Origin: a virus | Taxonomy: Duplodnaviria > Heunggongvirae > Uroviricota > Caudoviricetes | DNA: 19,618 bases | Reading direction: 5' to 3' (one strand) | IMG/VR virus record: IMGVR_UViG_2526164662_000035 | Location: 1 to 19,618 of that record | Shown here: piece after piece, positions 3,237-4,010 of the stretch | How the letters are laid out: every line of letters starts with the position of its first letter | Numbering within the stretch: position 1 is the stretch's first letter | Program-made: the position numbers and the translations under genes | Notes under the pieces: model-generated | What the model was told of the DNA's origin: nothing | Databases searched by the model: none | Seen by the model: the letters and a program-made list of their open reading frames with translations, nothing else

Positions 3237-4010
3237 TCAAAAATTAGGTGAGTAACGGACCGGGGACATAGCTCCTTTTTTTCTTAATTCATCTGGTATT
3301 TTTTTTCCAAGATAAAGATTTGCTATTTCAGGTGGGGCTTCTCGACCTTCAAAACCATAGCGAGAACTTTGTGTTGCCTCAAAGTCCGGATCCTCGTCCC
3401 AGTATTTCATCGTAGGGAAATTTTCACGTGTTGATTTGAGCCATTTATCAGCAATGAAAACCCCTCGAACGATCCCCCTTACAGTAGCAAGAATGACTTC
3501 TGCTTGGCTGGCGCGAGAGACATTAATGCGCCAGCTAAATCGAACCGCATCATAAAGCTCTGAATCCTTTGCACTTCTGTTAACGGAAATCATTAATGCT
3601 TTATGATGAAATGTTATGATTTCGGGTTGATATGTTGCTATCAACTCTTTGACATGCGCGGCGCCGAATTCATTGCTGCCAGCACCATTCATGATATTCG
3701 TTAACCCAGGGTAGGCATCAATAAGTGCTGCTTCAACTTCGTACGCCGTCTTTTCATCAGTCATTCCATGTCGATGGATGACATGGATAACTTCAAGTCC
3801 CGCTAATCTTATTTCTCTGATTTGCTTTAGCTTGTTGCTCAGTAACTCGTCATCATCAGCCGCTGCCACTTCACCGCGCATATGGGCAAATACGCGATTA
3901 CCTTTGCCTTTCCCTACATAGAAGGTGCTTCCGTCCCTAGGATCAATCAATCGGTATACATACCAGCCAAGGTGTTCAATTACTCCAGAAGGAAACTCAG
4001 TAATATCCAT
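3237..4010 (-). CDS. GIY-YIG nuclease-domain protein with a ~130-aa C-terminal domain of unknown function
   Basis: N-terminus has a GIY-YIG-like signature: [28 protein letters not shown], then ...[24 protein letters not shown] (candidate catalytic Glu and Asn). The ORF track starts at a TTG at 4061; the first ATG is at 4010 (MDITEF...), with no clear Shine-Dalgarno for either. Last gene before the tRNA-Ser att fragment. Confidence 0.6.

Follow-up and report, generated by a model that had tools for sequence, protein, structure and literature searches.

A probable orthologue of the anti-phage nuclease CMoRE (PD-T4-3) in the cargo region of an Sp1-like Escherichia coli prophage

PD-T4-3, renamed CMoRE, is an anti-phage system that was recovered from Escherichia coli strain ECOR68 in a functional selection (PMC9519451); work by Vassallo et al. 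is also cited for it. The proteins of E. coli O157:H7 and of avian pathogenic E. coli (APEC) O1 have been studied in detail, and their structures determined both free and bound to 5hm-dCTP, the triphosphate of 5-hydroxymethylcytosine (9U75, 9U8D, 9U7U and 9U7Z in the PDB; Liu et al., Nat Commun 2026, PMC12923530). In this study, we analyzed a gene present in a 19,618-nucleotide stretch of viral DNA, positions 1 to 19,618 of the IMG/VR record IMGVR_UViG_2526164662_000035, hereafter named the window. This gene is very probably an orthologue of PD-T4-3, and it belongs to the cargo of an O157 Sp1-like (e14-like) prophage integrated at thrW, of which it occupies the right end.

When cloned in BL21, the O157:H7, APEC O1 and Klebsiella genes protect approximately 10^5-fold against T2, T4 and T6. 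The enzyme requires Mg2+ or Mn2+, and it binds and cuts only DNA containing 5-hydroxymethylcytosine (5hmC) or its glucosylated form (5ghmC), leaving C and 5-methylcytosine (5mC) DNA untouched; T4(hmC) is restricted while T4(C) escapes. Two modified sites are required for cleavage, which follows the pattern CN11/N9G and leaves 3' overhangs of 2 nt. The active assembly is a dimer-of-dimers tetramer, with 5hm-dCTP bound at the edge of the C-terminal domain; mutants of the active site are dead and mutants that break the tetramer are inactive. A 15-residue acidic lid is found on the GIYxY-YIG domain, and neutralising it (4A mutant) results in toxicity and in cleavage of ordinary DNA (all in PMC12923530). 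Only two systems are active in the clinical/natural isolate NILS69; the native gene is one of them, and its deletion sensitises the strain to Tevenvirinae.

A CMoRE orthologue in the window

The gene is an intact open reading frame (ORF) on the minus strand of the window, from 3237 to 4010, starting with ATG and encoding 257 residues. An in-frame TTG upstream, at 4061, would give an alternative form of 274 residues, longer by 17. The 774-nt ATG form is the one used by RefSeq at the identical locus of strain C7 and of the enterotoxigenic E. coli (ETEC) strain H10407, and the ATG start is also supported by the PDB constructs and by the N-termini of aligned homologues.

Identity of the product was established by profile and structure-database matches. 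The PADLOC model for PD-T4-3 (PDLC04031) is matched over its full length (residues 1-256 of the 256-position profile, E 1.2e-139). PHROG 5356 is matched too (E 7e-143), a search of NCBIfam returning nothing useful. Compared to the O157:H7 protein (ECs_0285, PDB 9U75 and 9U8D), 253 of the 257 residues are identical, i.e. 98.4% (E 7e-172 for 9U75), and identity to the APEC O1 protein (9U7U and 9U7Z) is about 88%. The four substitutions, given as window residue, position and O157:H7 residue, are E55/D, I131/T, Q168/K and N197/H. At position 197, the window has the residue that is invariant in an alignment of 36 diverse homologues, reaching down to 54% identity, which was used for all conservation analyses below. 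Position 55 is acidic in both proteins, and glutamate is also the APEC O1 state. Homologues are very numerous, forming 6563 clusters at E≤1e-5.

The original prediction, made from the sequence alone, had recognised a GIY-YIG signature at the N-terminus of the protein, and this signature is real. Pfam PF22945 (LEM-3-like GIY-YIG) is matched at residues 28-110 (E 2.2e-14, 54 bits for a cutoff of 27), the generic GIY-YIG model of Pfam falling below threshold on this protein. The name PF22945 shares with LEM-3 and ANKLE1 reflects the catalytic domain only: unlike in these nucleases, no ankyrin or LEM domain was detected by Pfam. The GIYxY-YIG motif is present with its three tyrosines and the conserved Arg and Glu, and residues Y17, Y19, Y31, R39, E93, N105 and Y127 are invariant in the 36 homologues. 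All residues named by Liu et al. are present in the window protein, that is Y17, Y19, Y31, R80, V92, L96, Y127 and the acidic run 52-55. This run, which in CMoRE belongs to the autoinhibitory loop separating helices 2 and 3, reads DDDE, within AAADDDELL, as in APEC O1 (DDDE), where O157:H7 has DDDD.

The C-terminal part, of about 130 residues, had been left without a family by the same prediction, and indeed Pfam returned nothing for residues 131-257 (~127 residues), even with the threshold set at E≤10. A sequence profile of this region searched against the PDB matched only 9U75 and 9U7U (E 6e-56), and no other family. Its AlphaFold2 (AF2) model superposes on chain A of 9U75 at 1.7 Å over 126 of 127 residues, so that the domain is predicted to be a modification sensor of the CMoRE type. 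The fold search, the plating assays and the Tyr, Arg and Glu mutants that had been suggested to check the prediction are essentially done in the published work.

CMoRE is a single-component system, and the gene of the window likewise stands alone: no co-oriented ORF adjoins it, its flanks being a dead pin remnant on one side and a relic of the tRNA gene serU on the other. The same solitary arrangement is found in C7, ETEC H10407 and Sakai, and no obligatory partner gene is needed.

The mechanism was demonstrated with the 98.4% identical O157:H7 protein, and orthology suggests that the window protein would act likewise against phages. In this scheme, the protein would assemble as a dimer-of-dimers tetramer, in which the C-terminal domains of a dimer would bind two 5hmC or 5ghmC residues approximately 21 bp apart, and the N-terminal GIYxY-YIG domains would cut between these two modified sites, with the pattern and overhangs given above. 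The acidic loop D52-E55, lying over the active site, would keep the enzyme off unmodified host DNA. DNA of T-even phages would thus be degraded directly on entry, and the cell would not be killed.

The system itself is already known, having been discovered in 2022 and its mechanism and structure solved in 2026, and the locus brings nothing new on phage defence. The practical value of the result lies in annotation, as RefSeq still labels the protein "LEM-3-like GIY-YIG domain-containing protein". It also confirms that a reader provided with sequence only is able to recognise defence cargo located at the end of a prophage: defence or exclusion had been the proposed role, and for the near-identical O157:H7 protein anti-phage function, dependence on the nuclease, and structure are all published. 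Published evidence also comes from the ECOR68 copy (PMC9519451), from NILS69 and from a Capnocytophaga homologue.

Prophage context and attachment sites

An O157 Sp1-like (e14-like) prophage occupies positions 1-6068 of the window, which correspond to its right end. Identity to E. coli C7 is 99.3% over 1-5831, and homology to ETEC H10407 extends over 3057-6118; in this latter strain the prophage is complete (~39 kb), starting at thrW with its integrase and extending up to the end considered here. In the remnant prophage Sp1 of O157 Sakai, the order is pinE, ECs_0285, a regulator of the AraC family and a partial ISEc48, followed by the Sp1/Sp2 boundary. Among 5426 complete E. coli genomes, 413 contain 80% or more of the 1.9-kb CMoRE locus, almost always beside an intact pinE, and among the matches listed the variant of the window was matched end to end only in C7 and C3. 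Features of the region are collected in Table 1.

Table 1. Coordinates of the gene's domains and of neighbouring features in the window
Feature	Position	Strand	Remarks
Acyltransferase gene (Acyl_transf_3), broken by single-base indels	1672..2764	minus	Pfam PF01757, E 1e-25; GC content 32-36%
Dead pin invertase remnant	2908..3176	plus	PinE residues ~95-184; frameshift and in-frame stop; catalytic N-terminal half missing; tblastn against ETEC PinE
C-terminal domain, residues 131-257, predicted 5hmC/5ghmC sensor	3240..3620	minus	
N-terminal GIYxY-YIG nuclease domain, residues 1-128	3627..4010	minus	Y17, Y19, Y31, R39, E93, N105; acidic lid loop D52-D53-D54-E55
Upstream non-coding region, presumed native promoter	4011..4189	minus	
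serU tRNA-Ser, 3' 63 nt (anticodon arm to CCA), relic att core	4190..4252	plus	Rfam partial match; exact 28-mer match; alignment to K-12-type serU
serU-yodB intergenic chromosomal flank, 277 bp, inside prophage	4253..4529	plus	~97% identity to serU loci across essentially all E. coli genomes
AraC-family regulator gene, low-GC cargo	4827..5579	plus	Pfam HTH_AraC / HTH_18; same gene order in C7, ETEC H10407 and Sakai Sp1
IS3-family transposase remnant (ISEc48 partial in Sakai)	5621..5848	minus	ORF and annotations
thrW tRNA-Thr, 3' fragment	6069..6114	plus	Ends the CMoRE prophage as its right att and serves as left att for the 13-kb element that follows; unique 37-mer match

The invertible tail fibre segment adjacent to the gene had been described as destroyed, and this holds. 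The pin remnant, annotated as a pseudogene in C7, retains only the part of the invertase given in Table 1, and the acyltransferase gene takes the place of the inverted tfa'/stf' half that is found in intact relatives. In C7 this acyltransferase is intact (363 residues). In the window, single-base indels relative to C7 are found in the tail fibre assembly gene tfa (1186, 1202 and 1210) and in the acyltransferase gene (1743, 1879 and 2600), with three more between the two genes (1546, 1587 and 1625). They correspond either to a true decay of these neighbours or to homopolymer errors of the assembly. The CMoRE ORF itself has no indel compared to C7.

The gene had also been taken for the last one of the prophage, next to an attachment site (att) in a tRNA-Ser gene, and this claim has to be split. 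ARAGORN called no tRNA over the whole window, and the two tRNA fragments were located by partial Rfam matches (tRNA-like matches at 4170-4248) together with alignment to E. coli loci. A serU fragment does adjoin the gene, 179 bp beyond its 5' end. The current attachment site is however the thrW fragment, which was identified by sequence comparison with CAU16175, a strain whose thrW is intact. Homology to ETEC H10407 stops at 6118, homology to CAU16175 starts at 6069, and the Sp1/Sp2 boundary of Sakai falls at the same place. Nor is the gene terminal, as the AraC-type regulator gene and the IS3 remnant come after it.

The 63 nt of serU, together with the 277 bp of host flank, have the anatomy of the right attachment site (attR) of a prophage integrated in serU, an arrangement that lambdoid prophages also display at the genuine serU locus. 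The block made of the serU relic, the AraC-type gene and the insertion sequence (IS) remnant travels with the prophage, being found at thrW in the window, ETEC H10407 and Sakai Sp1, and beside argW in C7. A live serU att was rejected on these grounds: the block moves with the prophage and includes the 277 bp flank, and the prophage boundary is the thrW repeat. The serU piece is probably a fossil of an earlier integration in serU, with capture of the host flank. In this serU-integrated ancestor, the last cargo gene would have been CMoRE, which no longer occupies such a place. Such a fossil attR junction inside a thrW prophage constitutes a minor lead. The AraC block was found in 542 genomes and the CMoRE block in 413, so the former also occurs without the latter.

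From the thrW fragment onwards, an element of ~13 kb (6069-~19100) is integrated in tandem; it is found alone at thrW in CAU16175. It encodes a serine recombinase (7425-7982, minus strand), a capsid-protein-E-like gene (13583-14611), a 613-residue ORF with no Pfam match (14996-16837), a Dit-like tail protein (16885-17562) and a tyrosine integrase (17643-19007, minus strand). It looks like a satellite or a minimal phage-derived element.

Among the isolated phages of INPHARED, no close copy of CMoRE was found, all matches being below 60% identity, so that this search yielded no active phage vehicle.

Lytic jumbo phages encode full-length homologues of CMoRE (39-45% identity, 97-99% coverage) which are annotated as "putative homing nuclease". 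Examples are found in Serratia phage Moabite (6406-7161) and in Pseudomonas phage OBP (158703-159449). These homologues might help their phages to compete with co-infecting phages whose DNA is hypermodified.

Other roles, and expression of the gene

Given the nuclease family, the gene could in principle be a selfish homing endonuclease of the I-TevI type, cutting cognate alleles that lack it. The context and architecture make this most improbable. The gene is part of the cargo of a prophage and is placed between the dead pin and the serU relic, with no intron or intein around it. NUMOD, zinc-finger and helix-turn-helix (HTH) modules are absent, as no Pfam match was obtained in 131-257 and the C-terminal domain has the fold of the CMoRE sensor. 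Moreover, the near-identical O157:H7 protein cuts only 5hmC/5ghmC DNA, with no strict sequence specificity. Homing, in an intron or target context, had been named in the original prediction as the finding that would overturn it.

A toxin acting by abortive infection, i.e. a nuclease released on host DNA after infection and leading to cell death, is just as improbable. The toxicity of the 4A mutant, in which the enzyme deprived of its lid attacks ordinary DNA, is what speaks for such a role. With the wild-type orthologue, cells survive at a multiplicity of infection (MOI) above 1, T4 DNA is depleted while host DNA reads are unchanged, and neither 5hmC DNA nor 5hm-dCTP activates the cutting of ordinary DNA; protection was concluded to be direct, without abortive infection (PMC12923530). 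For this orthologue, the growth curves at high MOI thus refute abortive infection.

A further alternative is that the orthologue is genuine and yet silent, or too weakly expressed in its host, a mere passenger in a decaying prophage end. We consider this unlikely, at a level nevertheless well above the two preceding roles. It is favoured by the broken state of the adjacent tfa, acyltransferase and pin genes, by the APEC O1 gene, which gives weak protection from its native promoter and needs the T7 promoter for robust resistance (PMC12923530), and by the upstream region of the window gene. A simple promoter and terminator scan found no sigma-70-like site on the strand of the gene in 4011-4400, and no terminator. 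On the other side, the ORF is intact and its changes are conservative only, and the region upstream, through the serU relic, is common to loci of the O157:H7 type. Native-promoter clones of orthologues are active, that of O157:H7 giving ~5 logs of protection (PMC12923530), and the native copy is active in NILS69.

Several of these observations do weigh against a functional CMoRE orthologue as proposed here. With no consensus promoter in view and a weak APEC O1 native clone, it is not certain that the native upstream region drives expression. The assignment of R39 and E93 as catalytic Arg and Glu is probable from conservation, these numbers being absent from the text of the paper. Finally, specificity may be broader than 5hmC and 5ghmC: a Capnocytophaga homologue, 48% identical, degrades T4 DNA and Mu DNA, and not T4-GT7 DNA, and phages with arabinosyl-hmC are weakly hit.

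Comparison with known systems

A gene order similar to that of Sp1 is found in a prophage carrying another single-protein type IV enzyme directed against modified cytosine. The target range of McrA (EcoKMcrA), from the cryptic prophage e14 of K-12, comprises 5mC and 5hmC. In e14, a related prophage that shares the ymfQ-stf-tfa-pin module, mcrA fills the slot that CMoRE has in Sp1-like prophages, following pinE and preceding the right att (interval 6686-8413 of the K-12 e14 locus). The two enzymes differ in their nuclease, HNH for McrA and GIY-YIG, followed by a C-terminal reader, for CMoRE, and no sequence relationship was seen between them.

The ancestry of the CMoRE sensor can be discussed in the light of structural comparisons. 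It was published as a "distinct fold" for which the authors found no structural homologue, and a comparison with PUA, ASCH or YTH domains is absent from the text of the paper (PMC12923530). In the structural comparison of the C-terminal domain, the figures listed were 5.7 for an ASCH domain (5guq), 5.4 for YTHDC1, 5.4 for the EVE-HNH enzyme VcaM4I, 5.2 for the EVE domain of THYN1 bound to 5mC DNA, and 4.6 and 3.9 for N-terminal domains of McrB. Foldseek ranks these same families next, at E values of 0.03-0.3 and TM values of 0.3-0.54 only, and sequence profiles of the domain (Pfam, PDB) gave no link to PUA-like families. A relationship of the sensor to PUA-like folds is plausible but unproven. 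We tentatively propose, leaning slightly to the negative, that the sensor is a highly diverged PUA-like barrel of the ASCH/EVE/YTH kind, which would make CMoRE a GIY-YIG member of the widespread type IV class that joins PUA-like readers to nucleases, and, separately, that the pin-to-att interval of e14 and Sp1-like prophages is an exchange slot for type IV restriction enzymes, with McrA in the former and CMoRE in the window. If true, this slot could be mined for further systems. Both the PUA-like ancestry of the sensor and the e14/Sp1 pin-att slot as a hot spot of type IV restriction are minor leads.

VcaM4I (EVE-HNH) and the PvuRts1I/AbaSI enzymes are likewise type IV enzymes dependent on 5hmC or 5ghmC. 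Their nucleases are HNH and PD-(D/E)XK, in contrast with the GIY-YIG of CMoRE, and the similarity of their readers to that of CMoRE is structurally marginal, with a sequence identity of ~9%. Compared to other GIY-YIG nucleases, namely R.Eco29kI, I-TevI, T4 EndoII and the N-terminal domain of UvrC, CMoRE has an extra Tyr (GIYxY), the 15-residue acidic lid, and a reader of modification rather than of sequence.

The closest relatives remain the CMoRE proteins of O157:H7, APEC O1 and ECOR68, which share with the window protein the same length, two domains, GIYxY-YIG motif, acidic lid and Y127. In O157:H7-type loci, CMoRE has the same genomic position, as it follows pinE in a prophage of the Sp1 kind integrated at thrW. 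The window differs from O157:H7 by the four substitutions in the protein and by the insertion of the acyltransferase, which has destroyed pin and the invertible segment.
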